Assembly: GCA_041659325.1 (NCBI GenBank)
Contig: JBAZYN010000003.1
Span: 71,296-135,295 of the forward strand
Direction of reading: 5' to 3'
Source of the DNA: Candidatus Shapirobacteria bacterium
Lineage (GTDB): Bacteria > Patescibacteriota > Microgenomatia > UBA12405
DNA length: 64,000 nucleotides
Positions 5,152-46,257 of the stretch are shown here, one piece after another; the first letter of the stretch is position 1, and the number at the start of each line of letters is the position of its first letter. A model generated the notes under the pieces. The model saw nothing but the letters and a program-made list of their open reading frames with translations. It was not told the DNA's origin and ran no database searches. Position numbers and translations under genes: made by a program.

Positions 5152-5169
5152 TGAGTAATTGTAGCATTC

Positions 5170-5325
5170 AAACCCTAACCCTACCCTTTCCCTTGACAGG
5201 GCAAGGGATAATTGAAATCAAAACATCCCCCTGCCTGCCGGCAGGCAGGGATTGCCACGTCGTTCCACTCCTTCCGCCAAAGGCGGAGAAGCGCAATGAC
5301 GGGTAAGAAGCAATGACGGAAGGGG
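5170..5325. repeat. Mosaic palindromic repeat block (cccttgacagggcaaggg; ccctgcctgccggcaggcaggg; gattgccac-hairpin-cgcaatgacgg)
   Basis: Perfect palindromes; the same modules recur at 10370, 23942, 37862, 34590, 37880 and 61985. Confidence 0.8.
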
Positions 5326-5821: not shown

Positions 5822-5932
5822 GGTTTAGCCGAATTCGAGAATGAGTCCGTGCAATCCAAATCCCTCTTTAATTCTCCCTTTGACAAGGGAGAACATTGAT
5901 TATTGCCAGGGGAGGGTTTAGCCGAATTCGAG
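5822..5932. repeat. 75-bp insert carrying module aaatccctctttaattctccctttgacaagggagaac, flanked by 18-bp direct repeats ggtttagccgaattcgag (5822-5839 and 5915-5932)
   Basis: The second DR copy is the last 4 codons plus stop (LEFG*) of the permease gene. The first copy is an orphan duplicate distal to the insert. Confidence 0.8.
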
Positions 5933-7000
5933 TAATAAACCAAAAGTAAGAGATACAAAGATAAGAACTGCAAGAAGGAAGGTGACAGGTCGGGGATTGA
6001 TTCTTAGGCGGATGGCGCAAATCATGAGAGCAGAAACATATATGGTGATGGCGCCGGTAAGAGAAATTACCTGGATGAAGGGGACGGAAAATAGAAAAAG
6101 GCTAAGAAATGGAATAGCCAGGGGAAGAATTTGCGAAACAGGTTTTGAGAGACGGAAGTCACGATAAAAGAGCTCACGGAAGACTAAGAGAAAATTGAGA
6201 GAAGCTTCGTAGGTAATTAGAAGTCCAAAAACCGCCAGGCATCTCCCCAACCAGGGAGAGACTTTGAAGATGCCTGTGATCGAATCTACGGACAGAGAAA
6301 AACCGCTAAGCCGAATAACGGAAAAACTGAAAATTAAATAAATTAGTGAAACTAAAAGCAAACCGATAAGGGAGGCCAGGACGGTGTGTTTGGATTTGTC
6401 GGGCTGACCGCGAAAAAGCTCCTCTATTTCGGGAATTATAGTAAAACCACTGAGGGCAAAAATAAGAGAACCGAAAAAAGAAAAATTGGGGACAACCGAG
6501 CTGAGAGCCGGAGGAAGAGCTTGCAGGGCGGCAGAGAGAATTAGAAGAGGAACAAGAAGGATGGCGATGGGGATAATGTTTTCCAGGCGGCGGATGAGAT
6601 CGAAACGGTAGAGATGGCTAAAAGCCAGCAGAATTATGAAAATCACTGAGGCGGCAAAAAGCGGAATATAGGGGAAAAGAATGACTAAAAAATTTGAGAA
6701 AAGCTTGATATAAGCAATGGTGGCACCAAGACCGAGCAGAAGAATATTGAGGGAGGCAAGAGTTTTGAAATTTTTGCCAAGATAGATTTGGGCGTAACCG
6801 GAAAACTGATGATCCCCGGCCGTGTTTAAAACAACTTCGAGATAAAAGTAATTTATGAAACCGGAGACGATGGTGAGAATTCCCAAAAATATCAGAGAAA
6901 AATAAAAATCCGATTTGTAAAAAAGATAAGGCAGGGCGAAAATTCCGGCGCCGACAGTGCCGTAAAATTGGAGAAAGACGGCCTTTGAAAAGCGGGACAT
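5918..7000 (-). CDS. amino acid permease-like membrane transporter
   Basis: 10-12 TM helices; N-terminal GTVGAGIFALPY motif typical of amino-acid transporter families. Confidence 0.6.
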   Translation of the reverse strand: MSRFSKAVFLQFYGTVGAGIFALPYLFYKSDFYFSLIFLGILTIVSGFINYFYLEVVLNTAGDHQFSGYAQIYLGKNFKTLASLNILLLGLGATIAYIKLFSNFLVILFPYIPLFAASVIFIILLAFSHLYRFDLIRRLENIIPIAILLVPLLILSAALQALPPALSSVVPNFSFFGSLIFALSGFTIIPEIEELFRGQPDKSKHTVLASLIGLLLVSLIYLIFSFSVIRLSGFSLSVDSITGIFKVSPWLGRCLAVFGLLITYEASLNFLLVFRELFYRDFRLSKPVSQILPLAIPFLSLFLFSVPFIQVISLTGAITIYVSALMICAIRLRINPRPVTFLLAVLIFVSLTFGLLLEFG

Positions 7001-7400
7001 TGGTTAAGTATAGAGTCTAAAAGTCTTAAAGTCGAAAGTCTAAAGTTTAAAGCCAGCATAAACAAATTAATAATTAACAATTAACAGATTTGTATCTGTA
7101 ATCGGTAATCAGTAATTGGTAATTAGTAATCTGTAAACTGTAATTAGCCTTAGCTGTAAGCGAGTGCACTAAATCCCTCTTAAAATTTCAATTTGTCCCG
7201 CCCGTCGGACAGGCAGGAGCAATCTTAAAACAACTCTACTATTTCAATCCTGTAAGGATTGCTTCGTCGCCTGAAAGGCTTCTCGCAATGACGGGGGCGG
7301 AAGATTGCCACTCCTTCCCTTCAACTATGTTCAGGGCAAGCCCTTCGACAAGCTCAGGATAAACTAGCTCAGGGTCGCAATGACGGGGAAAAGGGAAATT
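7001..7400. repeat. Composite intergenic repeat region (9-mer tandem gtctNaaag units, GTAATN hexamer array, palindromic modules)
   Basis: atagagtctaaaagtcttaaagtcgaaagtctaaag (compare 61960-62080); gtaatcggtaatcagtaattggtaattagtaatctgtaa; block 7300-7390 matches 1-60 and 59940-60000. Confidence 0.8.
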
Positions 7401-7567: not shown

Positions 7568-8284
7568 TTAGTGGTGGAAAAACTGACGGACGGAAAGAAG
7601 TAGATAGTTAGTGGCAGCCGAAACGAATAGGATGCCCTGCAATGCCTTGTTTGTGAGGGACTTTTCGCCTTTTTCTGTCCCGGGGGTGTTTGGATCGATT
7701 AGCTTTATACCTTCTTGGGTTTTGAATAGATTATTGGAGTGGCGGAGAGAAAAAACAGCCCTGTCGACGATAAAAAGAAGTGACATCTTGTCGGGGACAC
7801 TTTCGTCCCTTCCGATTAAATCGTAATTTACTCCATATCTTAAATAGCATTTCATTGAATCGAATAAAATACATCTAAGCTGTGTGATATCGGCAGGCGG
7901 TAAACTCAAAATCCCCTTTAGCCCGAGTTTATTAAGAGGAGTACCTTCGACAAACTGCTGTATTCGGGCAATCCGGCTTGTCCCGGGAGCAGTACCCCCA
8001 ACAACCAGATAAGATTGAGCGACTATGGATTGTCTGGCTTGTTCCCCTGCGGTCCTTAACGTCAACTCTTCCAGAGTCCGTAATTTTTTTGCTTCGTTCC
8101 AAGCCTGATGCGGAGTATGGTCCCAAAAATTGTCCTTGGCGACCTTGACCACTACACCTTGGCCACTATCCGGAAGATAAACATTGGTTGATTTAGATTC
8201 GGTAGTGTTGTGATGATGATTCAAGTCAAACGGTAATCCCTGAGTATCAGACGAACGGTCGATCGACATATCTGATGATATCAA
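7568..8284 (-). CDS. hypothetical protein (inserted between uppS and its duplicated 3' end)
   Basis: 238-aa ORF; His-rich N-terminus; no motif recognised; begins 4 bp after the uppS stop. Confidence 0.55.
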   Translation of the reverse strand: MISSDMSIDRSSDTQGLPFDLNHHHNTTESKSTNVYLPDSGQGVVVKVAKDNFWDHTPHQAWNEAKKLRTLEELTLRTAGEQARQSIVAQSYLVVGGTAPGTSRIARIQQFVEGTPLNKLGLKGILSLPPADITQLRCILFDSMKCYLRYGVNYDLIGRDESVPDKMSLLFIVDRAVFSLRHSNNLFKTQEGIKLIDPNTPGTEKGEKSLTNKALQGILFVSAATNYLLLSVRQFFHH

Positions 8285-8290
8285 AATTTG

Positions 8291-9019
8291 TTAATTTCCC
8301 CCGAAGCGGCGGTGGCGGCGGTTGAACTCGATGACAGCGTCAATGATTTTTGACGGATTGAAATCGGGGAAATGATCTTTTTCAAAATAGAATTCGGCAT
8401 AGGCGTTTTGCCAGGACATGAAGCCCGATAGGCGCTGTTCACCGGAGCTGCGGATAATAAGATCGGGATTGGGATAGGGCTGATTTTGCAGATTGAGATA
8501 TTTGTCGATCAACTGTTGATCGACTTTGTCCGGACTGATTTTGTCGGCGACAATGGCAGAAACAACGCGGGTAATTTCGTCTTTGCCGCCGTAATCGAGG
8601 CATATATTGAAAACATGATCGGTAAAGTGAGCGGTGTCGGCTTCGGCTTTGGCGATAGCTGAGGCCAAACTTTTGGGAATACGGTCTTTACGGCCACGGT
8701 GGATAATTTTTACTTTTTCTTTTTTGGCGGAGTCAATTTGTTTTTTGAGAAAAAGCTCGTAGAGCTTCATGAGATAGGCAATTTCTTCTGCTGACCGGTT
8801 CCAGTTTTCGGTGGAAAAACACCAGACGGAGACGGTGTGAACGCCGATTTCCCAACAAGCTTCGGTAACTTCAACAGCGGCATCAAAACCCTTTTTGTGG
8901 CCTTCGAGGGTATACATGCCCCTGGCTTTGGCCCAACGACGGTTACCATCGGGAATTATGGCGATATGGTGGGGAATTTCTGAATTTTCAGGCAAGGAAA
9001 GATTCCATTTTGATTTCAT
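8291..9019 (-). CDS. uppS: undecaprenyl diphosphate synthase (isoprenyl transferase)
   Basis: HIAIIPDGNRRWA motif; ...RRHRRFGGN C-terminus. Confidence 0.9.
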   Translation of the reverse strand: MKSKWNLSLPENSEIPHHIAIIPDGNRRWAKARGMYTLEGHKKGFDAAVEVTEACWEIGVHTVSVWCFSTENWNRSAEEIAYLMKLYELFLKKQIDSAKKEKVKIIHRGRKDRIPKSLASAIAKAEADTAHFTDHVFNICLDYGGKDEITRVVSAIVADKISPDKVDQQLIDKYLNLQNQPYPNPDLIIRSSGEQRLSGFMSWQNAYAEFYFEKDHFPDFNPSKIIDAVIEFNRRHRRFGGN

Positions 9020-10167: not shown

Positions 10168-10174
10168 TATGTGA

Positions 10175-10258
10175 TTATAACGAATTACGAATTAATAATT
10201 ACGAATTACGAATTATCAGGTAATCTGTAATTGGTAACCGGTAATCGGTAACCAGCTC
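10175..10258. repeat. GTAATN / AATTAC hexamer tandem array forming a long imperfect hairpin
   Basis: attacgaattaataattacgaattacgaatta...ggtaatctgtaattggtaaccggtaatcggtaacc. Confidence 0.75.
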
Positions 10259-10261
10259 AAT

Positions 10262-10421
10262 TAAATCCACCCCTATCCCCTCCTTTGAAGAAAGGAGGGG
10301 CACTACTCGTCATTGTGAATGAATAGAGGGAATGTGACGATCTCGTGTTTCTTGCCGTAAACCATGCCTGCCGGCAGGCAGGGATTGCCACTCCGCCAGT
10401 TGGCGGATCGCAATGACGGGG
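10262..10421. repeat. Rep135 composite element, copy 1 (carries an extra ccctgcctgccggcaggcaggg module)
   Basis: aaatccacccctatcccctcctttgaagaaaggaggggcactactc...gattgccactccgccagttggcggatcgcaatgacgg; other copies at 34454, 46075 and 49861, plus a partial at 30056. Confidence 0.85.
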
Positions 10422-10826: not shown

Positions 10827-13156
10827 ACCCGGAAACTATTATCAGCCTGGTGACATCAATAATTGTATTTGCATTTATCGGGACGTTGGTGATCCTGCTT
10901 TTGGGATTTTTGGGGTATTTGCTGGTTTTAAGGTATAGATGGAGAGACAGAGAAGCCAAATCACTTGGGATGGTGACGCTGATGGTAGCAGTACCACAGG
11001 ATAATGAGATAAAAATTGATGCCATGGAGCAGATAATTAGCTCGTTTTCGACCATGTACAAAAGCGCCAAGTTTAAATTTTTGCAAACCTATGTAGCCCA
11101 ACCCAATTTATCGCTAGAGATTGTGGGAACGGCGCAAGACATTAGGTTTTATATTTGCACACCGAAAAAACTTCAGGATTTGGTGGAAAAACAGGTTTAT
11201 AGTGTTTATGCCGGGGCTGACGTAAGACAAGTGGATGAGCCAAATATATTTACTGAGGATGGGAAAGTGGAATATGTATGGTTGGCACTAAAAAAGCTGC
11301 CGCATTACCCTTTGAAAACATATAAGGAAATTCCGACTGACCCAATGGCGGCTGTAACTTCGGCTTTGTCAAAACTAAGTACCGGGGAAACGGTGGCGAT
11401 ACAATTGGTACTTTCGCCGACTGACGGCAGTTGGGCAAAGGCGGGGAGAAGCTTTATCAGCAGTACTAAAAAGTCGGAGGCAAACCCGGAGAAGGCCTCG
11501 TATAAAGTGGATGCAAGACAACTGGAGGCGGTGGAGAATAAGGCGGGAAGACAGGGCTTTGAAACGGTAATAAGGATAGTGTCGTGTGCCCCGAGCAGCG
11601 AGGTTGCGAAATTAAATATTTCGAATATTAAGGCATGCTTTGGCCAATTTGAATCACCGTGGAATAAACTGTCGTCTAAAAAAATGTATCTTAAGTCATT
11701 TTTTGTGGATGATTTTATCTATAAATATCCGGTGGTGTATTGGTTTAAAAACAAGACCATATTGTCGACAGATGAGATTGCATCGATTTTTCATTTTCCC
11801 AACAAATCTATTGAAACACCAAATATTTACTGGCTGAAAGCAAAAAAGGCACCGGCGCCGAATGAGGCTGTGCAGGAGGGGCTGTATATAGGCGACAACG
11901 TGTATCGAGGGATAACTAAAAAAGTGTGTATGACAGCATCGGACCGGCAAAGGCATTTTTATATCGTGGGACAAACAGGGGTGGGTAAATCGTGGCTTTT
12001 GGCAGACATGGCGCTACAAGATATTAAAGCCGGGAAGGGGGTGTGCTTTATTGATCCGCATGATACGTTTGAAAGCATATTGGAGAGGATTCCACCGGAG
12101 CGGGTGGAGGATGTGATTTATTTTGACCCGTCGATGGTGAACCGGCCGATGGGCTTTAATGTGATGGAATGTGAGAGAGAGGACCAGAAAGATTTTGTGA
12201 CTAGCTCGATTATTAACCTAATGTATAAACTGTATGATCCTTATAAAACCGGAATTGTGGGACCTAGGTTTGAACATGCAATAAGAAACATTATGTTGAC
12301 GGTGATGGCAGAGCCGGGGGCGACATTTATCGAGATTGTCCGGTGTCTGACCGATCCGACTTATGTGCAGGCAATGCTACCAAAGGTGAACGACCCGATG
12401 GTAAAAAGATATTGGACTGATCAAATCGCCCAAACTTCGGATTTTCATAAATCGGAGGTGTTGGACTATATCGTGTCAAAATTCGGCCGATTTATTACCA
12501 ACACGATGATGAGAAATATTATCGGGCAGTCGACGTCGTCGTTTAACTTTAGAAAAGCCATGGATGAGGGGAAAATATTGATTATTAATTTGGCCAAAGG
12601 GACAATTGGCGAGGAAAATTCGGCCTTTTTGGGATTGGTTTTAATCCCCAAAATTTTGATTGCGGCCATGAGCCGGCAGGATACGCCAGAGGCGAACCGG
12701 AAGGATTTTTATTTGTATGTGGATGAGTTTCAAAATTTTGCCACCCAGGATTTTGCCGTAATTTTGTCAGAAGCCAGAAAATACCACCTTAACTTGATCG
12801 TGGCCAACCAATTTATTTCACAGATGGATGATGAGGTAAAAAATGCCGTTTTCGGAAACGTAGGTACAATTTCGACTTTTAGGGTGGGAGTGGCCGATGC
12901 AGGGTTCTTGGTGCGGCAGTTTCAGCCGGAATTTAACGAACATGACCTTTTGAACCTGGGAACGGGAGAAATTTATATGAAGACAATGCTTAACGGTGTC
13001 CCCCAGTCACCATTCTCGGTGCGGGTGGCGGCGGTGGAAAAGAAAAAACCGGGGAACCCGAAACTGGCGGAGATGATAAAGCAGCTGTCGTCGATGAAAT
13101 ACGGCAGACCGAGAGAGATTGTGGAAGCGGAAATTGCCAAGAGAGCGAGATTCTAG
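10823..13156 (+). CDS. VirB4/VirD4-superfamily (T4SS/conjugation-type, AAA_10/DUF87-like) P-loop ATPase with an N-terminal TM helix
   Basis: Walker A GQTGVGKS near aa 385, Walker B FYLYVDEFQNF near aa 630, N-terminal TM; this architecture and motif spacing resemble VirB4/TrbE. Confidence 0.6.
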   Translation: MNPETIISLVTSIIVFAFIGTLVILLLGFLGYLLVLRYRWRDREAKSLGMVTLMVAVPQDNEIKIDAMEQIISSFSTMYKSAKFKFLQTYVAQPNLSLEIVGTAQDIRFYICTPKKLQDLVEKQVYSVYAGADVRQVDEPNIFTEDGKVEYVWLALKKLPHYPLKTYKEIPTDPMAAVTSALSKLSTGETVAIQLVLSPTDGSWAKAGRSFISSTKKSEANPEKASYKVDARQLEAVENKAGRQGFETVIRIVSCAPSSEVAKLNISNIKACFGQFESPWNKLSSKKMYLKSFFVDDFIYKYPVVYWFKNKTILSTDEIASIFHFPNKSIETPNIYWLKAKKAPAPNEAVQEGLYIGDNVYRGITKKVCMTASDRQRHFYIVGQTGVGKSWLLADMALQDIKAGKGVCFIDPHDTFESILERIPPERVEDVIYFDPSMVNRPMGFNVMECEREDQKDFVTSSIINLMYKLYDPYKTGIVGPRFEHAIRNIMLTVMAEPGATFIEIVRCLTDPTYVQAMLPKVNDPMVKRYWTDQIAQTSDFHKSEVLDYIVSKFGRFITNTMMRNIIGQSTSSFNFRKAMDEGKILIINLAKGTIGEENSAFLGLVLIPKILIAAMSRQDTPEANRKDFYLYVDEFQNFATQDFAVILSEARKYHLNLIVANQFISQMDDEVKNAVFGNVGTISTFRVGVADAGFLVRQFQPEFNEHDLLNLGTGEIYMKTMLNGVPQSPFSVRVAAVEKKKPGNPKLAEMIKQLSSMKYGRPREIVEAEIAKRARF

Positions 13157-13291
13157 GAAAAAACCCTTCCGTCCCGACTAAAGTCGGGACACCTTCCCTT
13201 GACAGAGCAGGCTAATACAAATTTATAATTCCTTAAGGCGGATGCCTTGCAATTTTTCTTTGGCTTCGATAAGCGGAAAATTTTTTCCTGA
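13157..13291. repeat. 135-bp insert flanked by an 18-bp direct repeat of the VirB4-like gene terminus (caagagagcgagattcta at 13138-13155 and 13292-13309)
   Basis: Contains hairpin gtcccgactaaagtcgggac and a ~60-bp segment (13215-13282) about 80% identical to the 3' end of the recombinase gene at 14182-14245. Confidence 0.75.
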
Positions 13292-13347
13292 CAAGAGAGC
13301 GAGATTCTAAGGGGGAATTTAAGAATTTTATTCGCCTACCCTATTTA

Positions 13348-14181: not shown

Positions 14182-15051
14182 TTATAATTCTTTTAATTTG
14201 ATGCCTTTGGATTCTTCTTTGGCTTCGATAAGCTCCATGTATTTTTCGGTGGTGGAAATGCGCTTGTGACCGACAATTTGGGAAACTACGTCGATGGGAA
14301 CGCCGGATTTTAATTGAAAAGCAATAAAAGTGTTTCGCAAGTCATTGACTTTGATACCCTTGATGTCGGCCTTGTTGAAATAGCGATTTAATAAACTTCT
14401 GATGTTACGGGCTAGAAGGTGACGGCCGGTTTTGGTAACAAAAACGCTTTTGGATTTGCTGTTGTAACGACCTTCATCGAGATATCTTTTTAGAGCTGAT
14501 TTGGCGGAATTGTTTAGAGGAACAGTGCGGACACTGTGACTTTCGTATGAGTCGATGATAATTTCATTGTCTTTGATGTTTTCCAACTTTAGATTTTCGA
14601 TTTCTTTGATCCTTAGACCGGCTTGAAGCATCAGCTCGACAATGGCGGTGGACCGGGCATCATTTCGGCAGGCGTCGCGCAGAGACCGGTATTCAATTGG
14701 TTTTAAAATTTTGGGGACATCATTTTCGTACTTGGGATGTTTTATTTCGGTGGAAGGATCGACAGAGATGAGGCCTTCATTTTTTAAAAAGGAAAAGAAA
14801 TTTTTGATGGAGTTTAGTTTTCGACTGACTGACTTGGCGGTATAGCCGTTTTTCATTAAATCTTTTTTGAAGTTGTCAATATCGGTGCCACGAACGGCAT
14901 CAACTCCGGTGATTTTTGACTGGGCCTTTAAAAAGTGGATCAGCTGATTAATATCACCTTTGTAGGCTACAATGGTGTTTGTGGACTTACCTTTTGTTAA
15001 AAGAGATTTGGTAAAAAGATCCAAGGTGGATTCAAGGGATAGATCGGGCAT
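14182..15051 (-). CDS. tyrosine site-specific recombinase, XerC/XerD-like
   Basis: C-terminal catalytic signature HSVRTVPL...LRNTFIAFQLKSGVPIDVVSQIVGHKRISTTEKYMEL (R..HxxR..Y); 289 aa. Confidence 0.85.
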   Translation of the reverse strand: MPDLSLESTLDLFTKSLLTKGKSTNTIVAYKGDINQLIHFLKAQSKITGVDAVRGTDIDNFKKDLMKNGYTAKSVSRKLNSIKNFFSFLKNEGLISVDPSTEIKHPKYENDVPKILKPIEYRSLRDACRNDARSTAIVELMLQAGLRIKEIENLKLENIKDNEIIIDSYESHSVRTVPLNNSAKSALKRYLDEGRYNSKSKSVFVTKTGRHLLARNIRSLLNRYFNKADIKGIKVNDLRNTFIAFQLKSGVPIDVVSQIVGHKRISTTEKYMELIEAKEESKGIKLKEL

Positions 15052-15542: not shown

Positions 15543-15610
15543 CATTTCACTTGGTAATCGGTAACCAGTAATTGGTAATTGGTAATAAGAAAATGTATCG
15601 GTTTTACTTG

Positions 15611-15719: not shown

Positions 15720-16040
15720 GGAAAATCAAAACCCACTTTTAAATAAAACCCTAACCCTACCCTTTCCCCCACCAAAGGCGGGCAGGCTTGACAGGGCAAG
15801 GGGGAATAAAAATCCAAATCCCTCTTTAATTCTCCCTTTGACCCACCTGCCGGACGAGCTGGTCTTCCTTTGGCCCTCCTACGCCACCGACTTCGCCAAA
15901 GCTACGGCGGGCAAGCAAGGGAGAATTATAAAAATAAAAGAAACTCGATATATTTGGTATAATCACCCTAGTTTTTGGCTCGCCTACGGTAAACCTACGG
16001 CGGGCGAGGCCCTCCCCGTAAGGCTACGGAAGGGCTGGAA
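15720..16040. repeat. Mosaic repeat block upstream of the tRNAs
   Basis: Modules cccttgacagggcaaggg, aaatccctctttaattctccctttgac, cctacgccaccgacttcgccaaagctacggcgggcaag (compare 1-110); includes a TGgTATAAT extended -10 at 15955-15963. Confidence 0.75.
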
Positions 16041-16202: not shown

Positions 16203-16276
16203 GGGCATGTAGCTCAGTTGGTTAGAGCATCGATCTTATAAGTCGAGGGTCCATGGTCCGAGTCCATGCATGCCCA
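16203..16276 (+). tRNA. tRNA-Ile (UAU)
   Basis: gggcatgtagctcagttggttagagc-a-tcgat-cttataa-gtcga-gggtc-catgg-tccgagt-ccatg-catgccc-a; 7-nt anticodon loop cTTATAAa gives anticodon TAT. Confidence 0.65.
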
Positions 16277-16322
16277 CAGTGGGTGGAAAACCTAAATTAA
16301 TTTTTATTTATTTTTCCAAAAT

Positions 16323-17509: not shown

Positions 17510-18720
17510 CCAGGCAGATTGGGAGTTAGAATGCTTTTTGTTTTCGTCCTGTGCTTTTTGGGCCTGGACTCATCAGATCCGGAGAAACCGGATAAACACA
17601 CATCCGACCCACCTGGTGGCTATAAAAAACGCCACCAGGCAGGTCGGGGAACTCGATAGTGCTTGGCCCTCAGGGTCCGAAATTCACCCTAGAGGGCCTC
17701 GGACGCGTGGGCGTCGGTGCTACGGGGTGTAGCAGTGCGTCTGGGCCCAGAGGGTGTTCGACCTATCGACCAACTGGACATCCCAAGGGGGCTGTCGATT
17801 GTGACCGGGGGCGACGGTAAACTCGAACTCATTGTTCGACAACCATCGGTAGGAACACGGTTCCACACCCTCCCACAAAAGCAAGGCCCAATCCTCACCC
17901 GAGCTCCGCGGTAGCGGGGGCAAGTTGACCCGAATGCGGACGCTCCAGGGCACGTGGTGCCGGAAAGAGAAGACCACGCCGGGCCAACCCTCATGGTTGG
18001 GCCTGAATTCACGGGTCTCAACCTCCGTACCGCCGACGAACAAGGTCGCACTCGCGCTGCCCGGGCAGCCCTGGCATAGGACGCCAAGGAAGGAACGGCT
18101 GTTCCTTGGGGGCGGGGGGGGCGGTGGGGTGACCGGGGGGGTCAACGTGACCGGCGGGTTGGTCGGAGTGGCCGTGATCAGCGTCATCGGCGGGGTCGGG
18201 GTGGCCGAAGGGGTGGCCGAGGTCGTGGGCGTGTTGGTCGGGGTGGCCGAAGGGGTGGCCGTGGTCGTGGGGGTCGGCGACGGGGTGGCCGTGCGGGTCG
18301 GGGTACGGGTCGGCATGCAGTGGCGGATGTTCTCCTCCTGGATATTGATGGTGGAGGAATTCGCCACAATGCCATTCGGCCCTTCGAAGCGGATGCTGTA
18401 GACGCCCGGCTGCGCGATCCTCGTGAAGTGGGGGTCCTTCCCGGGTTTGGTGCAGCCTTCGCTGAGCGTGATCGACCGAGAGGAAACGACCTGGCCATCC
18501 CTAATGAGGGACAGAGTACCAGTGACCTTTTCGGTCGAGCATACACGGGCCCACATCGTCAGATCCTCGTAGCAGTCCCACCCTTCGGCGGGAATGGTGA
18601 CGACCGGCGTCTCGGCGGACACGACCGAAGAGTCCCGGAGGGATACTCCCACCAGGACGGCGAGGGCGATGATGCCCAAGAGCAACGCGGCGGACACGAT
18701 CTTTTTCCCGTTCATGAGAT
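17510..18720. other. High-GC (~60-65%) island in a ~42% GC background
   Basis: Abrupt composition shift immediately after the stop at 17507 and before 18720; the antisense strand is full of spurious long ORFs, as is typical for high-GC DNA. Confidence 0.8.
17720..18715 (-). CDS. secreted/membrane-anchored protein with a Pro-Thr-rich linker (high-GC, foreign-looking gene)
   Basis: Signal/TM MNGKKIVSAALLLGIIALAVLVGV; PT linker PTRTPTRTATPSPTPTTTATPSATPTNTPTTSATPSATPTPP...PPPPPPP; C-terminal Cys-containing domain. Confidence 0.7.
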   Translation of the reverse strand: MNGKKIVSAALLLGIIALAVLVGVSLRDSSVVSAETPVVTIPAEGWDCYEDLTMWARVCSTEKVTGTLSLIRDGQVVSSRSITLSEGCTKPGKDPHFTRIAQPGVYSIRFEGPNGIVANSSTINIQEENIRHCMPTRTPTRTATPSPTPTTTATPSATPTNTPTTSATPSATPTPPMTLITATPTNPPVTLTPPVTPPPPPPPRNSRSFLGVLCQGCPGSASATLFVGGTEVETREFRPNHEGWPGVVFSFRHHVPWSVRIRVNLPPLPRSSGEDWALLLWEGVEPCSYRWLSNNEFEFTVAPGHNRQPPWDVQLVDRSNTLWAQTHCYTP

Positions 18721-21628: not shown

Positions 21629-23904
21629 TTTGGCCAGGCGGCGGTGATGAGCATGGCCTCTTTCAGATTATATTTTTTGGCGAGAGTTTGGTAGATATTT
21701 TCGGTGATAAAAGGGATGAAGGGATGAAGAAGCTTGAGAGAAGTAATCATAACGTGGAGAAGGACGGGCAGGGCGTCCGGTCCCCTATTTTTGGTGGATT
21801 CGAGATAAATATCGCAAAAATCATGCCAGAAAAAGTGGTAGAGGTCTTCTGAGGCCTGGCCGAAACGAAAATTATTTAGATTTTTGGTAGTGGATTTGAT
21901 GATTTGGTCGAGTTTGGTGAGGATGGCTTGGTCGGATAAATCCCTCTCGGCTTCGCCGCTTCTCCCTTTGACAAGGGAGATATTTACCGGAGCATCGCCG
22001 AATTTGAATTCGATGAAACGGGCGGCGTTCCAGATTTTGTTGATAAAGTTACGCTGGGCGCGGATTTTGTCTTCGGAGACGACGAAATCAGAGGCGGGGG
22101 CGATGCCGATGACCAGGGACATTCTGAGGGCATCGGTGCCGTATTTTTCGGTCATGGTGAGGGGATCAACCCCATTTCCCTTGGACTTGCTCATTTTTTG
22201 ACCTTTGGAATCGACGACCCGAGAATGAAGATGGACCATTTTGAAGGGAACATCTTTGGCTAAATATAGGCCAAACATGATCATTCTGGCGACCCAGAAG
22301 AAAAGAATATCCCAAAGAGTGTCGAGAACTGAAGTGGGGTAAAAATAGAAAAAATCCGGGGATGATTTTTGCGGATCATCGGGATTGAAACCGAGAGTGT
22401 TTAGAGGCCACTGGCCGCTTAAAAACCAGGTGTCAAAAGTATCGGTTTCCTGCAATAAATGGGTGGACTTGCATTTTGAACAATGCGAAACTTGGTCGAC
22501 GACAAAATCGGTGTCAACCGGGGCGATTAGTGATTGTAGCCCGTTTTTGATTTCTTCATAGGAATATTTGTCTTTTAGATCGGCGTAAAACCCGGAAACT
22601 ATTTCTTGGTCCCGATTTAGGAAGTTAATTTTTATTTGAGGACTGCAGTCCAAACAATACCAGGCGGGAATTTGGGGACCCCAAACAATTTGGCGGCTGA
22701 TATTCCAATCGCGGATATTTTCCATCCAGGTAATAAAAGCTTTTTTGAATCTGGTGGGGAAAAACTTGACCTGTCCCTCTTTGGCGGCGGCAATGGCGGC
22801 CTTGGCTAAAGGATCTATTTTTAGGTACCACTGGGGAGTAACCATGGGCTCGATGGGGCGGTTGCAGCGGTAACAACGGCCGATACGGTGCTGATATTTG
22901 TCGTCTATTTTGACTAACATACCGCGGGATTTCATATCCGCCACCACTTTTTCCCGGGCGGAAGCGACAGTCAGCCCGGCATATGGTCCGGTGAGCTCAT
23001 TTAGACGACCATCAAGACCGATAACCTTTTTGAGAGGTAAATTGTGCCTTTTGGCGGCTTCAAAATCGTTTGGATCGTGAGCGGGGGTGATTTTGACAAC
23101 ACCGGTGCCAAATTCCATATCGACCATATCATCAGCAATTACTTTGACAGTAAAAGGGCCGTTTAGCCCGTCGACGGTGATTTCCTGACCGATGTATTGG
23201 GTATACCGCGTGTCTTTGGGATGGACGGCGACGGCAGTGTCGCCAAACTTTGTTTCGGGGCGGGTGGTGGCCAGAGTGAACGGCCCATACTTCATATAAT
23301 ATAGGCTGGTTGTTTCGTCGACGTAATTGACTTCGAGATTGCTAAAGGCGGTGCCACAGTGAGGACAATAATTGACAATTTTTTCATCACGATAGATAAG
23401 GCCGTCGCGATAGAGCTTTTTGAAGACAGACAGGACATTGTTTACAATCGAGGGCTCCATACTGTAGTGATATCGGGTCCAATCCATGGAGAAACCCAGT
23501 TTTTTCATCTGGAAGACGTTTTGTTGCCGATTTTTTTCGACGAAATCCCAAATCAGCTGATATAGGGTCTGTCTGTCAAAATCAAAACGACTTTTGCCTT
23601 CCTTGGATAATTTTTTTTCGAAAACAAATTGGGTTTCGATGCCGGCATGATCGCCGCCGGGCAGCCATAAGGTGGGATCGCCCAACATGCGGTGATAGCG
23701 GACTAAAATATCTTCGATGGTAAATACGGCATGCCCCATGTGCATGGGATCGTTGGCGTTTGGGAGGGGCAAAATGATGGTGTAGGGTGGGTGGGATTTG
23801 CGAGCCTTTTGAGGATTTTTGGGGACAATCGGGGTGAAGGCGCCTGATTTTTCCCACAGGGAATAGATGTCCTGCTCGTTACTTGGGTCATATGCCTTGT
23901 CCAT
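21625..23904 (-). CDS. valS: valine--tRNA ligase (short form)
   Basis: HMGH motif (PNANDPMHMGHA), GGDHAGIETQ, KMSKSKGN; 759 aa; contains an in-frame repeat-derived insert SLVKGRSGEAERDL. Confidence 0.9.
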   Translation of the reverse strand: MDKAYDPSNEQDIYSLWEKSGAFTPIVPKNPQKARKSHPPYTIILPLPNANDPMHMGHAVFTIEDILVRYHRMLGDPTLWLPGGDHAGIETQFVFEKKLSKEGKSRFDFDRQTLYQLIWDFVEKNRQQNVFQMKKLGFSMDWTRYHYSMEPSIVNNVLSVFKKLYRDGLIYRDEKIVNYCPHCGTAFSNLEVNYVDETTSLYYMKYGPFTLATTRPETKFGDTAVAVHPKDTRYTQYIGQEITVDGLNGPFTVKVIADDMVDMEFGTGVVKITPAHDPNDFEAAKRHNLPLKKVIGLDGRLNELTGPYAGLTVASAREKVVADMKSRGMLVKIDDKYQHRIGRCYRCNRPIEPMVTPQWYLKIDPLAKAAIAAAKEGQVKFFPTRFKKAFITWMENIRDWNISRQIVWGPQIPAWYCLDCSPQIKINFLNRDQEIVSGFYADLKDKYSYEEIKNGLQSLIAPVDTDFVVDQVSHCSKCKSTHLLQETDTFDTWFLSGQWPLNTLGFNPDDPQKSSPDFFYFYPTSVLDTLWDILFFWVARMIMFGLYLAKDVPFKMVHLHSRVVDSKGQKMSKSKGNGVDPLTMTEKYGTDALRMSLVIGIAPASDFVVSEDKIRAQRNFINKIWNAARFIEFKFGDAPVNISLVKGRSGEAERDLSDQAILTKLDQIIKSTTKNLNNFRFGQASEDLYHFFWHDFCDIYLESTKNRGPDALPVLLHVMITSLKLLHPFIPFITENIYQTLAKKYNLKEAMLITAAWPK
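21938..21981. repeat. Palindromic repeat module inserted in frame inside valS
   Basis: aaatccctctcggcttcgccgcttctccctttgacaagggagat; identical 44-mer at 28827-28870 inside tsaD; encodes SLVKGRSGEAERD on the valS strand. Confidence 0.9.
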
Positions 23905-23914
23905 GGGATGATTT

Positions 23915-24060
23915 TAACATCTAAATCCCTCTAAATCTCCCCCTGCCTGCCGGCAGGCAGGCCTGCCCCCTCTTTGAAGAAAGAGGGGGAAATCAAACCC
24001 ACCCATTATCTCCATCCCTTGACTCTCCGAAAGCTTCGCATTCTGGCGGGTGAACAAGGG
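23915..24060. repeat. Mosaic repeat block (aaatccctctaaatctcc; ccctgcctgccggcaggcagg; ccccctctttgaagaaagaggggg)
   Basis: Perfect palindromes shared with 5238, 10370, 37862 and 61985. Confidence 0.8.
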
Positions 24061-24733: not shown

Positions 24734-25903
24734 ATGGAAATAATCAAAATTAACGACAGTTACGAAGAAATTATTAAAAGGACGGCTGAAACGATAAGGG
24801 GCGGCGGACTGGTGATATTCCCATCGGATACGGTATATATTTTGGCGATGGATCCGACAAATGTTGATGCGACAAAGAAACTTTTGGCGTTTAAAAACCG
24901 CTGGGTGGGAAAGGCAATTTCGGTGGCAGTGGCGGATACTAAAATGGCCAAAGATTATGTAGAACTATCGGAAAACGCTGAAAATATATATGCTAACTTG
25001 CTACCCGGACCATTTACGGTAGTAAGCAAGGGAAAACATAAAATGGCGAGCGGGATTGAGGCGGAAAACGGGACTTTGGGGATAAGAATCCCCGATAACA
25101 AATATATTCACGATTTGGTGACAGCCATTGGGAAACCGGTAACGGCGACATCGGCTAATCTGTCGGGGCGGACACCGCATTATTCTATCGAGAGCTTTTT
25201 GAAAACATTGTCGCAGAAAAAGAGGGACATGATTGATTTGATCGTTGATGCGGGGAAACTGCGGTTTAATAAGCCGTCGACAGTTATTGATGCCACTGAG
25301 CCGGAAATCAAAATTTTGAGGCGAGGCGACCTGATTACTGCTAATTCTAAAACTTTGATATCCAAATCGGAAAAGGAAACGGGGAAGATTGCGGAGTTTA
25401 TATTGAATAAATCCCTAAATCAAAATCTACCCCTATCCCCTCCTTTGACGAAAGGAGGGGCACTGCCATTAGTATTTGGACTGAGTGGAGATTTGGGATG
25501 CGGAAAGACAGTGTTTTCGAGGAGTGTGGGGAAAATATTGGGGGTTAAAGAAAAAATCACTAGCCCGACATTTGTGATTATGAATGAGTATGATATCAGT
25601 CTGAAAGTCCAAAAGTCTGAAAGTCTGAAAGTTGGACAGCCGGTTAGTCTGAAAGTCCAAAAGTCTGAAAGTCTGAAAGCCGGGAAGTTTTTACATTTTG
25701 ATTTGTATAGAATCGGAGGCCAGTTTGAATTGGAAGAAATAAAATTTTGGGAACAGTTCAAACCGGGAACCGTGGCTTGTATTGAGTGGCCGGAAAATAT
25801 GGGAAAGGAAAATTTTGAGAAATTGAAAAAGATGACGAATTATAAGGCAATAAACTTTGAATATGTGAACGAGAGAACAAGAAAGATAAGTTATGAGATG
25901 TAA
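24734..25903 (+). CDS. L-threonylcarbamoyladenylate synthase (TsaC/YrdC domain) fused to tRNA t6A protein TsaE
   Basis: YrdC domain ...VTATSANLSGR...; TsaE P-loop GLSGDLGCGKTVF, SPTF, HFDLYRI; two in-frame repeat insertions in the TsaE half. Confidence 0.85.
   Translation: MEIIKINDSYEEIIKRTAETIRGGGLVIFPSDTVYILAMDPTNVDATKKLLAFKNRWVGKAISVAVADTKMAKDYVELSENAENIYANLLPGPFTVVSKGKHKMASGIEAENGTLGIRIPDNKYIHDLVTAIGKPVTATSANLSGRTPHYSIESFLKTLSQKKRDMIDLIVDAGKLRFNKPSTVIDATEPEIKILRRGDLITANSKTLISKSEKETGKIAEFILNKSLNQNLPLSPPLTKGGALPLVFGLSGDLGCGKTVFSRSVGKILGVKEKITSPTFVIMNEYDISLKVQKSESLKVGQPVSLKVQKSESLKAGKFLHFDLYRIGGQFELEEIKFWEQFKPGTVACIEWPENMGKENFEKLKKMTNYKAINFEYVNERTRKISYEM
25423..25463. repeat. Palindromic module aaatctacccctatcccctcctttgacgaaaggaggggcac inserted in frame in tsaE
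   Basis: Same module opens the Rep135 copies; encodes NQNLPLSPPLTKGGAL just before the TsaE P-loop. Confidence 0.9.
25598..25679. repeat. 9-bp tandem repeat (agtctgaaag/gtccaaaag units) inserted in frame in tsaE
   Basis: Encodes LKVQKSESLKVGQPVSLKVQKSESLKA between EYDIS and GKFLHFDLYR; the same unit family is intergenic at 7003-7050 and 61960-62080. Confidence 0.85.
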
Positions 25904-25904
25904 A

Positions 25905-26000
25905 CCAAATCCCTCTTTAATTCTCCCTTTGACAAGGGAGAACACTACTCTTGTGCGTAAGAACGACTGAATGTAAGAGACGAATTTTCCGCTTGGGCAA
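25905..26000. repeat. Module aaatccctctttaattctccctttgacaagggagaac plus a tail
   Basis: Identical to the module at 5858-5897. Confidence 0.8.
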
Positions 26001-28574: not shown

Positions 28575-29783
28575 GTGTTTTTCGATTGGATTTCGCGGGA
28601 AGAGACAAGGCCAGGGCGGTATAATAGGCGGATGATTGTACTGGCAATAGAAACAAGTTGTGACGATACGTGTGCGGCGGTGCTAGAAAATGACCGGATA
28701 TTGTCGAACGTGGTTTCGTCACAAATTAACCTACATGCCCAGTGGGGCGGAGTGGTGCCAGATATTGCCAAAAGGGCGCATATGGAAAGAATTATGCCGG
28801 TGGTGATGACAGCTTTAAAAAGGGCAAAATCCCTCTCGGCTTCGCCGCTTCTCCCTTTGACAAGGGAGATGGAAAAATTGATGAATGAAATTGATGTGAT
28901 TGCGGTGACGGTGGGACCCGGGCTAGCGCCCGCTTTGGGAGTGGGAGTGAATACTGCCAAAGAACTGGCAATAAAATACAAAAAAAAACTGGTGGCGGTA
29001 AACCATGTGGAGGGGCATATTTTGTCCAACCTGGCAAAAAACAGGAAGGGAAAACCGGAGAGAGAGATCGAGTACCCTGCCCTAGTACTGACGGTTTCGG
29101 GAGGACATACCAAGATCATTTTGATGAATCAAAATGATCAATTTTCAATTTCTAATTCTCAATTTTTAAAAAATAAAAAAGTACCAAATAAAATAGGTGG
29201 TTTTCAATATCAGGTTGTTGGAGAAACGCTGGATGATGCGGCGGGAGAGGCACTGGATAAGGCAGCAAAATTGATGGGGCTGGGGTATCCCGGAGGGCCG
29301 ATAATTGAGAGGTTGGCGGAGGGCGGAGACCAGAATTTTCTTGAATTACCCAGACCAATGGCAGACAAAAAGATTCTTGACTACAGTTTTTCGGGGCTGA
29401 AAACTAGCTTTTATTACAAGATTAAGGACTGGCCCAAGGATAAGGTGGCCCAAAATTTGCATGACTTGGCGGCAAGCTATCAGGCGGCAGTGTTTGAGAT
29501 GCTTCTCAGAAAATTTAAACTGGCAATTGAAAAATGTGAGCCAAAAAGTCTGATGGCCTGCGGCGGAGTGATGGCAAATGTGACATTAAGAAAACAATTG
29601 CGGATGTTGGCGAGAAAATTTAAGTTGCCGATTTTTATGCCATATACTAAGATTTTGAATACGGATAATGCCGGGATGATTGGGGTGGCGGGATATTTTA
29701 AGGCAATGAGGGGTGAGTTTGTAAAAGATATTGAAGGTTTGGACAGAAACCCGAGAGCACAATTAACAATTAAATTTTTGTAA
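28575..29783 (+). CDS. tsaD: tRNA N6-adenosine threonylcarbamoyltransferase TsaD
   Basis: MIVLAIETSCDDTCAA (likely true start ~28632), HVEGH, SGGHT, DDAAGEALDKAAKLMGL; contains the repeat-derived insert KSLSASPLLPLTRE and an AT-rich low-complexity insert NQNDQFSISNSQFLKNKKVPNK. Confidence 0.9.
   Translation: MFFDWISREETRPGRYNRRMIVLAIETSCDDTCAAVLENDRILSNVVSSQINLHAQWGGVVPDIAKRAHMERIMPVVMTALKRAKSLSASPLLPLTREMEKLMNEIDVIAVTVGPGLAPALGVGVNTAKELAIKYKKKLVAVNHVEGHILSNLAKNRKGKPEREIEYPALVLTVSGGHTKIILMNQNDQFSISNSQFLKNKKVPNKIGGFQYQVVGETLDDAAGEALDKAAKLMGLGYPGGPIIERLAEGGDQNFLELPRPMADKKILDYSFSGLKTSFYYKIKDWPKDKVAQNLHDLAASYQAAVFEMLLRKFKLAIEKCEPKSLMACGGVMANVTLRKQLRMLARKFKLPIFMPYTKILNTDNAGMIGVAGYFKAMRGEFVKDIEGLDRNPRAQLTIKFL
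28827..28870. repeat. Palindromic repeat module inserted in frame inside tsaD (opposite orientation to the valS copy)
   Basis: 44/44 identical to 21938-21981. Confidence 0.9.
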
Positions 29784-29784
29784 T

Positions 29785-30170
29785 CAGTAATCTGTAATTG
29801 GTAATTAAGTCAAAACCCACCCTTTAATTCCCTCCCTTGACCCTCCTACACCATGGCTACGGAGGGGCGAGAGGGAGGGCGGAACATTGCAATCCAAATC
29901 CCTCTAAATCTCCCTTTGACAAGGGAGACTTCAAAAACCCCTCACCCATTCGGGAGCTCCCCTTGACCCGCCTGAGGCGGGTAAACCGGCAGGCAGGCCT
30001 ATCCCCTCCTTTAACCCTCCTACGCCATGGCTACGGAAGGGCGATGGAAAGGGAGAGCACTGCTGATTATCGCGAATGAATAGGGTGTGAGGTGGTTTTG
30101 TATTTATTACCGTAATGATTGCCACGCTACGCTCGCAATGACGCGTGGATCCCAATGACAGTTTGTTGAG
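29785..30170. repeat. Large mosaic repeat block including a partial Rep135 variant (30056-30160)
   Basis: GTAATN hexamers; ccctacaccatggctacggagggg twice; aaatccctctaaatctccctttgacaagggagacttcaaaaacccc (compare 48980); cgcaatgacg. Confidence 0.8.
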
Positions 30171-34329: not shown

Positions 34330-34690
34330 TCTGGGTGAAAGAGTAAAGAGAGAATTGAGGGAAAAAAAGTAAGATTGCCGCGTCGTACCGATAATTCGGA
34401 ACTCCTTCCGCCACTGGCCCGCCTCGGCGGGTAAACGGGCAGGCAGGGGAGCAAAATCTACCCCTATCCCCTCCTTTGATGAAAGGAGGGGCACTACTCA
34501 TCATCGTGAATGGATAGAGTGAATGTGAAGATCTCGTATTTCTTGCCCCAAAGATTGCCACTCCGCCAGTTGGCGGATCGCAATGACGGGGAAAAAAGAT
34601 TGCCACGTCGTTCCACTCCTTCCGCCAAAGACGGACAAGTGCAATGACAGGATTTTAAATCTCCCCCTGCCCCTTCTTTGACCCTCCTAC
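34330..34690. repeat. Mosaic repeat block including Rep135 copy 2 (34454-34591) and two gattgccac-hairpin-cgcaatgac modules
   Basis: aaatctacccctatcccctcctttgatgaaaggaggggcactactcatcatcgtgaatggatag...ccgccagttggcggatcgcaatgacgg. Confidence 0.85.
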
Positions 34691-36826: not shown

Positions 36827-36834
36827 GTTGGTAA

Positions 36835-36965
36835 TTGGTAACCTGTAATTGGTAACTGGTAATTAAGACAGTTAATTTTAACAGGCAGAATGGGGTTATT
36901 CTATGAGAAGATGGAGGACACTTGTAATCAGTAATCGGCAATCAGTAACCTGTAATTGGGAACTG
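36835..36965. repeat. GTAATN hexamer arrays (two blocks)
   Basis: ggtaattggtaacctgtaattggtaactggtaatt ... gtaatcagtaatcggcaatcagtaacctgtaattgggaactgggaatt. Confidence 0.75.
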
Positions 36966-36969
36966 GGAA

Positions 36970-37728
36970 TTACTCTACAAAAAGAAGGAGAAACATGAGG
37001 CCGACACCGACGATGATGGAAAAAAGTTGGATGAGGGAGGCGGAAATTTTGGGACTATGGCGATGAAGCTCGGGGATGAGATCGGAGGCGGCCAGATAGA
37101 TAAAAGCACCGGCAGTGACGGGCAAAAGATAAGCGGCAAAATTGTCGATATTGGTGCCAAGAAAGAAGGTTAGAAAAACTCCTAAAAAACTTATAAGGGC
37201 GGATAAAAAATTTAGAAGAAGGGCTTTGGCGACCGGTACACGGCTATGGACCAAAATAGCATAATCCCCTATTTCCTGGGGTATTTCGTGAATCAAGACG
37301 GCCAGGGTGGTGGCTAGGCCCAACTCACGGCTGACCATAAAAGCGGCGGCGATGAGCATGCCGTCGATGAAGTTGTGAACGGCGTCGCCGACAGTATTTA
37401 GGGCAACAATGTGGCTATGGCTGTCTTCACCCTCCGGACAATCAAGGTTGTGGCAGTGACGCCAACGAAGAAACTTTTCCAGGGTGAAATTTAAAAGTAG
37501 GCCGGCGATGACGAGAAGGGAAATGGTGGCGGAGGGAATGGGGCCGGAAAAAGATTCGGGAAGGATATGGATGAAGGCATCGCCCAAAAGACTACCGACA
37601 GCGAAACTGACTAGGTATGGGGATAGACGGCTGACAAGAGACGGGCTGAAAAATAAAAAAACAAGGCCGGAGAGAGAGACCAGACTGATAAAAAAGACAG
37701 CGATGAGTGAACTAAAAAGCGGAGACAT
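36970..37728 (-). CDS. ZIP family metal (zinc) transporter
   Basis: HNFIDGMLIAAAF and HEIPQEIGDYAIL motifs. Confidence 0.85.
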   Translation of the reverse strand: MSPLFSSLIAVFFISLVSLSGLVFLFFSPSLVSRLSPYLVSFAVGSLLGDAFIHILPESFSGPIPSATISLLVIAGLLLNFTLEKFLRWRHCHNLDCPEGEDSHSHIVALNTVGDAVHNFIDGMLIAAAFMVSRELGLATTLAVLIHEIPQEIGDYAILVHSRVPVAKALLLNFLSALISFLGVFLTFFLGTNIDNFAAYLLPVTAGAFIYLAASDLIPELHRHSPKISASLIQLFSIIVGVGLMFLLLFVE

Positions 37729-37839: not shown

Positions 37840-37995
37840 AGATAGGAGGTATTTTAAATCTCCCCCTGCCTGCCGGCAGGTAGGGATTGCCACGTCGCTT
37901 CGCTCCTTCCGCCAAAGGCGGATAGGCGCAATGACGTGAGATGAAAGATTGCCACGTAATTTTACTCCTACCGCCAAAGGCGGATCAGCCCAGGG
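37840..37995. repeat. Palindromic module block (ccctgcctgccggcaggtaggg; two gattgccac-ccgccaaaggcgga-cgcaatgac units)
   Basis: Compare 5238-5300. Confidence 0.8.
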
Positions 37996-46213: not shown

Positions 46214-46257
46214 ATAAAGTGGCAAAGTTGGGTAATTTTTGATATAATACAACCCTT

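Follow-up and report, generated by a model that had tools for sequence, protein, structure and literature searches.

Miniature inverted-repeat transposable elements (MITEs), pneumococcal BOX elements (boxA-boxB-boxC), Correia elements and enterobacterial repetitive intergenic consensus (ERIC) sequences are non-autonomous, structured and modular repeats. Rickettsia palindromic elements (RPEs) are palindromic repeats of ~100-150 nt which, in a reduced genome, lie between genes and also in frame inside essential protein genes. Here we analyse Rep135, a composite repeat in a 64,000-nt stretch of a Candidatus Shapirobacteria genome (contig JBAZYN010000003.1, positions 71,296 to 135,295; hereafter the window), and compare it with these and other described systems. 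The latter include the RPEs mentioned in PMC2694212, the repetitive extragenic palindromic (REP) sequences with their mosaic clusters (bacterial interspersed mosaic elements, BIMEs), their doublets (REPINs) and the REP-associated tyrosine transposase (RAYT, or TnpA-REP) (PMC2817692, PMC3333891, PMC3116915), the attC sites of integrons (PMC2727003), and IS200/IS605 insertion sequences, in which single-strand transposition goes with an orientation bias tied to replication direction (PMC5027513).

Rep135 is probably a non-coding, non-autonomous mosaic repeat acting at the level of DNA, of the REP/BIME, BOX, MITE or RPE-like kind, and not an RNA gene. It is built of modules that belong to independent families; these keep to one strand, the tail family covaries by Watson-Crick pairing, and modules of the head kind are associated in related genomes with gene cassettes that are polymorphic for presence and absence. 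Set against the described systems, Rep135 would be placed neither with REP-RAYT pairs nor with MITEs having terminal inverted repeats (TIRs) and target-site duplications (TSDs), attC sites or any Rfam family, and the variable slot in its tail seems to follow the logic of attC.

Like RPEs, the modules of this DNA occur in frame in genes, here those of TsaD, TsaE and a class I aminoacyl-tRNA synthetase, and one copy of Rep135 lies beside the tmRNA gene. Unlike RPEs, to which they are unrelated in sequence, they are modular with swappable hairpins and strictly polar, and the composite itself is found only between genes. With attC sites the tail would share conserved outer inverted boxes, a variable central region recognised as a folded single strand, conservation of structure in place of sequence, and strand-specific function. 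Yet the frames do not match the GTTRRRY/RYYYAAC core sites, IntI is absent, as are gene cassettes and their arrays, the length of 26-51 nt is much shorter than in attC, and the sole tyrosine recombinase of the window is of XerC/D type and not adjacent to them.

A composite of three parts

Repeat finding returned one family of four 134-nt copies (copies 1 to 4 of Table 1), 70-89% identical to the reference copy. The preliminary description of this DNA had listed these four correctly and had taken a match at 30056 for a fragment; MAFFT aligned with them a full, rearranged fifth copy at ~29998-30142. Rep135 is a mosaic of a head hairpin (A), a middle part (B) and a tail (C). Module A, of 38 nt, joins the C-rich frame AAATCYACCCCTAT on its outer side to a hairpin of 10 bp without mismatch, whose loop is of the TTGA type; a base of this loop given earlier as R is actually N (A, T, A and G in the copies). 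Module B has ~60 nt. In module C the frames GATTGCCAC and TCGCAATGAC, both conserved, flank a palindromic slot whose sequence is free. Identity between the four full copies reaches 95% in A and 94-100% in the frames of C; it is about 75% in B, 83% in the linker and 69% in the slot of C.

The slot holds TCCGCCAGTTGGCGGA at 10383, 34553 and 49960 and, within the same frames, TCCCGACGTGAAGTCGGGA at 46174. This swap had been rightly spotted and called compensatory. The palindrome is indeed retained while its sequence changes, but between Rep135 copies there is no base-by-base compensation: a whole cassette is replaced by another of different length and sequence. This is close to the exchange between module families that the preliminary description had named as a refutation, and covariation emerges only at the level of the family. 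Copy 4 has the frame variant GATTGACAC in its tail and also carries CCCCCATCCCC. Copy 5 has a 35-nt nested hairpin inserted in the loop of its head and a minimal 26-nt tail, GATTGCCACGCTACGCTCGCAATGAC, without inner hairpin, followed by a partial extra 3' frame that runs to 30159. Copy 2 is neighboured by a second tail-type unit on its 3' side (34598-34648) and, from 34373, by a tail-like frame variant with a long nested insert on its 5' side.

Rep135 copies occupy divergent, convergent and tandem gene gaps, and throughout the window the whole composite is restricted to intergenic sites. We found no flanking sequence common to the copies, and the beginning (AAATCYACCCC...) and the end (...GCAATGAC) of the repeat do not form an inverted pair. 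A minus-strand reading frame stays open across four copies, and its profile matched none of 5.8 billion predicted proteins. The composite pattern had no match in 185,579 species genomes; in metagenome contigs its sole match was a relative syntenic with the window (contig L001), whose middle part differs. Exact-protein look-ups of window genes led to one contig only, a 4.4-kb Logan contig of the same organism (SRR18595301), which stops inside a Rep135 copy. In the 1.42 Mb of DNA that was fetched, B was confined to this contig and the five window copies. There is a weak case for viewing part of B as a decayed inverted tail unit, which would make a REPIN-like doublet: pairing in the helices reaches 80-84% across the five copies, but in sequence the unit matches poorly against the null. 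A and C also exist alone and in other combinations, and are independent modules.

Module families, strand polarity and nuclease cassettes

The exact head hairpin, CCCCTCCTTTGANGAAAGGAGGGG, has 6 matches in the window when 0.00 are expected from shuffles, and the tail end GCAATGAC has 14 against an expectation of 1.35; these, like the 12 exact matches of GATTGCCAC, are all on the + strand. Five of the 12 tail units of the window are in Rep135 copies and seven elsewhere, and they span 26-82 nt with several different inner contents. The intergenic DNA is packed with further module families of the same grammar, among them AAAYC...TTGAC-loop hairpins that resemble the terminal repeats of the nuclease cassettes described below. 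(We considered these TTGAC loops as -35 boxes and dropped the idea, as their spacing to any -10 box is inconsistent between modules.) Pyrimidine-armed TTGA-loop hairpins that can be oriented number 15 on the + strand and 0 on the - strand, when a greedy set of non-overlapping open reading frames (ORFs) divides into 38 on the + and 41 on the - strand. Every 2-kb bin has a positive GC skew, and all window modules lie on the G-rich strand regardless of the direction of neighbouring genes; the tail units at 5250, 7303 and 44859, for instance, are on + yet between minus-strand genes.

This polarity extends beyond the window. Module A lies on the strand given by the sign of the local GC skew in 40 of the 42 sequences compared, which are the window and 41 other loci; at one of the two exceptions (L006) the module is the inverted partner beside a DUF559 gene. 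A complete Microgenomates genome and its relatives (order UBA1400) show G>C disparity on one strand along the whole chromosome (PMC7143001). The exact head hairpin was present in 40 stretches of GTDB species genomes, about half of them labelled Candidatus Shapirobacteria and a few Parcubacteria, Woesebacteria or Sphingomonadales; most of the others are labelled 'uncultured Gammaproteobacteria', probably in error. The relative L001, a JGI contig, and several other head-hairpin loci are syntenic with the window. Their genes have 63-77% nucleotide identity, whereas module A is ~92-97% identical between these genomes and recurs in syntenic intergenic regions. It had no match in IMG/VR.

The tail frame, on the other hand, is widespread in viruses. 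An IMG/VR scan returned at least 120 stretches with at least 122 distinct units, in contigs of 32-66% GC among the matches listed; in the annotated phage collection there was one match, the unannotated human-faecal phage MT835548.1. Units are sharply bounded, with bias only at the base before the frame (R) and the base after it (A). We measured covariation in 22 distinct 37-nt members among the matches listed. All seven pairs of the inner stem have changed on both sides and none on one side only. Pairing in the inner helix amounts to 88%; once the 3' partners are slid, pairing over the whole structure is 25-42%. No shuffle matched the covariation score. Only one of 154 cells is a U-G pair, and this near absence of G-U pairs fits Watson-Crick DNA palindromes. 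Hence the early argument that conserved structure speaks against neutral junk holds at the level of the family, and the swapped hairpin of Rep135 is one case of a widespread design of fixed frame and free palindrome.

Tail units occur as solos, as inverted (-,+) doublets and as tandem arrays, the latter with spacers of ~12 nt in viral contig L077 and about 24 nt in L050. In a Microgenomates contig (L167) a doublet includes a direct unit nearly identical to the tail of the window, GATTGCTTC-TCCGCCAATTGGCGGA-TCGCAATGAC. In tailed phages the arrays have 3-5 units (L077, 2670-2856 and 4984-5103; L050, 11383-11520; L111); one of them lies between terminase and portal genes, and adjacent units bear different inner hairpins. 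A mobilising gene for the tail family was sought among 933 clustered ORFs from ~120 viral contigs, which proved to be phage structural and replication genes only, and the ORFs between inverted tail units were nothing remarkable. A literature search by frame sequence and by the spurious peptides gave primer noise only.

Clustering of ORFs in related loci gave a recurrent family of 119-155 aa that Pfam identified as DUF559, Vsr-like. Ten distinct genes were taken in, some of their loci having been retrieved independently via the protein: seven stand between inverted hairpin modules with the grammar of module A, the other three directly follow a pair of modules, one direct and one inverted, on their upstream side, and the DFYC..IE.DG..H motif is intact in all ten proteins. 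The cassettes measure roughly 0.55 kb, with inverted terminal repeats of roughly 40-50 nt, and encode an intact predicted nuclease of the PD-(D/E)xK type. The terminal repeats proposed for these cassettes would combine an AAAYC...CCCT frame with a terminal hairpin whose loop is of TTGA type, an inner hairpin being optional. Module A has this form; A-type sequences bracket DUF559 ORFs in locus L040 and adjoin DUF559 in L028, L037, L006 and L167. Modules of A's kind, be they A or sister forms, are the inverted terminal repeats of DUF559 cassettes in related genomes.

Two sister contigs differ by one such cassette, present in L169 and missing in L170 between the same two genes. Its left end reads ATCTAACCCCTCC-CCTCGATTATTAAATCGAGGA-CCTCCCCTTGACAGGCGAGGC; its right end has the same frames with another inner hairpin, GGTCCGGCGTTCACCGGACCA. 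Since the frames are shared and the hairpins differ, a hairpin was swapped inside a single element, and this swap is of the same kind as that in the Rep135 tail. Most of 739 DUF559 homologues lie on contigs of 1-3 kb, as expected for multicopy elements. In the manner of MITEs and BOX elements, the genomes with DUF559 cassettes also contain gene-less inverted-pair doublets of ~60-110 nt beside the gene-carrying versions. Rep135 differs from MITEs in lacking TIRs and TSDs, and the partner gene encodes a small Vsr-like nuclease, not a DDE transposase. The Vsr/DUF559 clade includes the Vsr-like (EDxHD) homing endonuclease I-Bth0305I (PMC3424549), a precedent for a selfish role of DUF559; the DUF559 cassettes differ from it in being free-standing, with hairpin-bearing inverted ends, and not intron-borne. 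Our search of the DUF559 literature found no paper on repeats.

Modules in genes and other features of the window

Insertion into genes, a behaviour of RPEs, is found for modules and not for the whole composite. A 44-nt hairpin module occurs in two 100% identical copies, both read on the + strand; where a solved homologue of TsaD has a gap of 13 residues in the alignment, TsaD has the module. A solo module A adds ~15 extra residues to a TsaE domain, in which an array of AGTCTRAA octamers (SLKVQKSESLK...) adds about 27 more relative to solved TsaE structures. Octamer arrays also lie on the start side of two minus-strand genes, and the array at 61978-62009 is interrupted by the palindrome CCTGCCGGCAGG. 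Runs of the heptamer GTAATYN (e.g. GGTAATTGGTAACCTGTAATTGG) recur in many intergenic regions, always on one strand and often adjoining hairpin modules, and an AATTACG repeat is related to them.

Table 1. Rep135 copies, related modules and other features of the window
Feature	Position	Strand	Parts and context
Rep135 copy 1	10263-10417	+	A 10263-10300 (hairpin 10277-10300); B 10301-10361; C 10383-10417; between divergently transcribed genes
Extra 21-nt palindrome CCATGCCTGCCGGCAGGCAGG	10362-10382	+	Between B and C of copy 1
Rep135 copy 2	34454-34587	+	A 34454-34491; B 34492-34552; C 34553-34587; between convergent genes
Rep135 copy 3	46075-46211	+	A 46075-46112; B 46113-46173; C 46174-46211, alternative inner hairpin; directly upstream of tmRNA promoter
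Rep135 copy 4	49861-49994	+	A 49861-49898; B 49899-49959; C 49960-49994; between co-directional genes
Rep135 copy 5, rearranged	29998-30159	+	Head 29998-30057; B 30058-30116; tail 30117-30142
Solo module A	25423-25460	+	In frame within TsaC-TsaE fusion ORF 24734-25903
Solo module A	49088-49125	+	Upstream of smpB; a module A occupies the syntenic site in L001
Other AAAYC...TTGAC-loop hairpin modules	5167-5211, 5850-5895, 13160-13215, 15743-15853, 21938-21981, 23933-23989, 25899-25944, 28827-28870, 29827-29933, 41613-41657, 48978-49023		
Tail-family unit GATTGCCAC...GCAATGAC	5250-5300	+	Different inner content
Further tail units	7257-7292, 7303-7384, 34598-34648, 37885-37935, 44859-44910, 58803-58848	+	
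44-nt module AAATCCCTCTCGGCTTCGCCGCTTCTCCCTTTGACAAGGGAGAT	21938-21981, 28827-28870	+	In frame in TsaD (sense); in class I aminoacyl-tRNA synthetase gene (antisense)
AGTCTRAA octamer array	25590-25695		In frame in TsaE domain of TsaC-TsaE fusion ORF
AGTCTRAA octamer arrays	7010-7050, 61955-62072		
GTAATYN heptamer runs	7097-7146, 10212-10261, 15553-15588, 29772-29807, 36830-36972, 46719-46768		
AATTACG repeat	10174-10223, 41687-41715		
tmRNA gene	46258-46706	+	RF00023
Promoter-like site	46219-46248		Just 3' of copy 3
smpB	48442-48858		Near tmRNA gene
Tyrosine recombinase, XerC/D-type	14182-15051		
tRNA-Ile, anticodon TAT (UAU)	16203-16277		Beside tRNA-Met(CAT) genes at 15473 and 16044
Direct repeat GAGAGCGAGATTCTARGG, 17/18 nt	13141-13157, 13297-13314		Brackets ~140-nt segment
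Segment missing from L001	41639-45909		~4.4 kb
159-nt tandem repeat, three units	47444-47920		Within ORF 47425-48339
G-rich 12/18-nt periodic repeats	18110-18307		Within ORF 17720-18715
Duplicated 115-nt segment	7435-7549, 8292-8406		First in undecaprenyl-diphosphate synthase gene

Several further features of the window deserve mention. The tmRNA gene was recovered by the local permissive Rfam scan only (63.5 bits, E=3e-24), and missed by ARAGORN and by the whole-window scan at gathering thresholds. The promoter-like site before it combines GTGGCA, an 18-nt spacer and TATAAT, with TTGGGT and a 16-nt spacer as an alternative -35 box. The segment missing from L001 (about 6365-6395 there) abuts the tmRNA gene, has four ORFs, among whose products are one like YdjM and an editing protein like AlaX, and is bounded by hairpin modules, namely that at 41613-41657 and Rep135 copy 3. 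The ~140-nt segment between direct repeats begins with a module like the DUF559 terminal repeats (13160-13215) and could be the footprint of an insertion; a weak tblastn match to DUF559 at 13184-13252 is the module sequence itself and not a remnant of a gene. The UAU anticodon is uncommon in bacteria. The repeats in the two internally repetitive ORFs are coding, and the proteins have no Pfam match. Finally, a 3' segment of the undecaprenyl-diphosphate synthase gene is duplicated with 93% identity at a distance of ~860 nt, next to the 3' (downstream) end of ORF 7568-8284, its neighbour.

Origin of Rep135 and its meaning

The preliminary description had suggested a structured RNA or a protein-recognised cruciform. 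That Rep135 or its tail is transcribed, as a small RNA, a cis-regulatory or stabilising stem-loop or a processing site, would agree with stable local hairpins in the copies (z-scores of -3 to -5 against mononucleotide shuffles), with the upkeep of hairpin structure across different sequences and with the tandem arrays that some phage contigs carry between co-directional genes. Yet both strands fold about equally well, the long-range pairs are inconsistent between copies, and RNAalifold gave three local hairpins for the four copies with a covariation term of only -0.62 kcal/mol, to which the tail family adds the scarcity of G-U pairs. Rfam 15 found tRNAs only in the window, the local permissive scan around copy 3 the tmRNA only, and a scan of the viral tail-unit arrays nothing relevant; promoter and terminator scans revealed nothing consistent within the copies. 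It is the orientation data that make RNA very improbable: units on + lie among minus-strand genes and in divergent and convergent gaps, following the chromosome strand and not the genes, and viral units have no fixed direction with respect to the ORFs beside them (by crude ORF calls among the matches listed, both neighbours are sense for 35 and antisense for 17). Barely credible, to our mind, is the idea that a few segmental duplications left inert remains, never mobile, in which the hairpins are there by chance. The window has only five copies, B is found nowhere else than in the window and the Logan contig, and the species genomes lack the composite, all of which fits this idea. But the copies share no flanks, the modules occur separately and recombined, polarity is strict, family-level covariation and frame conservation across phyla argue against chance, and the Logan assembly breaks inside a copy as assemblies do at multicopy repeats.

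Both other alternatives accept DNA hairpins and differ in what keeps them. In a REP/REPIN system the units would be substrates of a single-copy HUH Y1 transposase (RAYT/TnpA-REP) whose gene lies in another part of the genome and which uses single-stranded DNA at the fork, and Rep135 would be a BIME-like cluster. Much is alike: many-copy short extragenic palindromes clustered into mosaics, the inverted (-,+) doublets of GATTGC frame units that are common in other contigs, ends without TIRs or TSDs, and single-stranded hairpin DNA as the most plausible form of the substrate. The strict orientation also matches the lagging-strand-template bias of IS200/IS605 HUH elements (PMC5027513, PMC6006769). 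Even so, we regard this system as doubtful. The RAYT or IS200-type gene that the preliminary description proposed to look for did not appear: the Pfam scan of 60 window ORFs found no Y1_Tnp (PF01797) and hence no TnpA, and there was none among the recurrent ORF families near units in 41 Shapirobacteria-related loci or viral contigs. Moreover, the hairpin foot lacks a GTAG-like tetranucleotide and has instead 9-10-nt frames on both sides of a free slot, the window units are co-oriented and do not alternate as in BIMEs, some are inserted inside genes, and the head family is tied to cassettes of a PD-(D/E)xK gene, DUF559, and not to an HUH gene. Selection by the host could alternatively maintain strand-polar signals for priming, replication restart, segregation or recombination, of the kind of KOPS, Chi or single-strand initiation hairpins. 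Such signals would explain why polarity follows the G-rich strand almost everywhere, why, within Rep135, conservation is much higher in A and the frames of C than in B, and why module A outlasts the divergence of genes at syntenic intergenic sites. They are nonetheless quite unlikely: orthologous sites of different genomes hold different modules, some essential genes contain them, many sequence-unrelated families have the same polarity, and these modules also stand as inverted pairs on either side of a nuclease gene that one sister genome has and another lacks, which is how selfish elements behave.

A DNA hairpin recognised by a protein, or the substrate of a mobile element, thus remains the best fit among the early suggestions, and a non-autonomous mosaic repeat is the reading we favour. 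Several points weigh against it. Comparison of the ends and flanks of four copies revealed neither TIRs nor TSDs. The inverted tail unit in B is within three mismatches in copy 1 only, and a first-order Markov null gives ~2.9 hits at up to four mismatches. Remnants of terminal repeats should occur in both orientations and the window shows one; the strand-specific step is our supposition. The 64-kb window contains no gene for DUF559, Y1 transposase, TnpB or any other transposase; its only tyrosine recombinase looks like a housekeeping enzyme of XerC/D type. The link between DUF559 and module A is an association in other genomes and not in that of the window, and copy number and orientation relative to skew rest on 64 kb of the genome. 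Selection for some function in the host could likewise be why A and the frames of C are so well conserved while B drifts.

How might such a repeat arise? The window modules may be solo or non-autonomous derivatives of selfish elements of the DUF559-cassette type. Rep135 would have originated when A, a spacer and a C unit became juxtaposed, and would then have been copied a few times as a lineage-specific block. Its slot would be free in sequence provided that a Watson-Crick palindrome persists. Slots could turn over in two ways: members of the family might trade them by way of the frames, which are conserved, or one arm might serve as the template for its partner through intrastrand template switching, which we compare with the correction of quasipalindromes (PMC7202029). 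By either route the arms would stay perfectly complementary without G-U intermediates. Insertion or retention might be locked to one template strand, on single-stranded hairpin DNA at the replication fork. The orientation bias of IS200/IS605 is a likeness here, although no TnpA was found. Such a one-strand step would explain why all modules lie on the G-rich strand in genomes with a strong, possibly chromosome-wide, G/C disparity. The candidate for a mobilising enzyme would be DUF559, from its association with cassettes elsewhere; that it spreads the solo modules is a hypothesis that we advance tentatively.

By itself the composite is only modestly interesting. Three patterns behind it are unusual and can be tested: the polarity is locked to one strand, the frame family crosses phyla, and the hairpins at the ends of DUF559 cassettes vary. 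Some consequences are practical: modules break assemblies, as in the Logan contig that ends within a Rep135 copy, and in metagenome-derived genomes of the candidate phyla radiation (CPR) they create spurious ORFs and add residues to essential proteins. Others concern biology. A nearly pure Watson-Crick design of fixed frame and free palindrome, across phyla and phages, implies a conserved and still unnamed process that recognises or generates DNA hairpins. DUF559, a very common "endonuclease domain-containing protein", gains a hypothesis for its role, as the nuclease of a cassette with hairpin ends. The polarity of many unrelated hairpin modules provides a testable handle on chromosome-wide strand asymmetry in some Microgenomates. 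It is conceivable, if still speculative, that CPR bacteria and Microgenomates in particular host an undescribed selfish system, in which a DUF559 cassette has hairpin-bearing inverted ends with a hypervariable slot, and solo ends and GATTGCCAC-palindrome-TCGCAATGAC units colonise intergenic DNA and essential genes in one orientation only, via single-stranded hairpins at unidirectional forks. If so, these repeats would be a built-in marker of one-strand G/C disparity and possibly of unidirectional replication.

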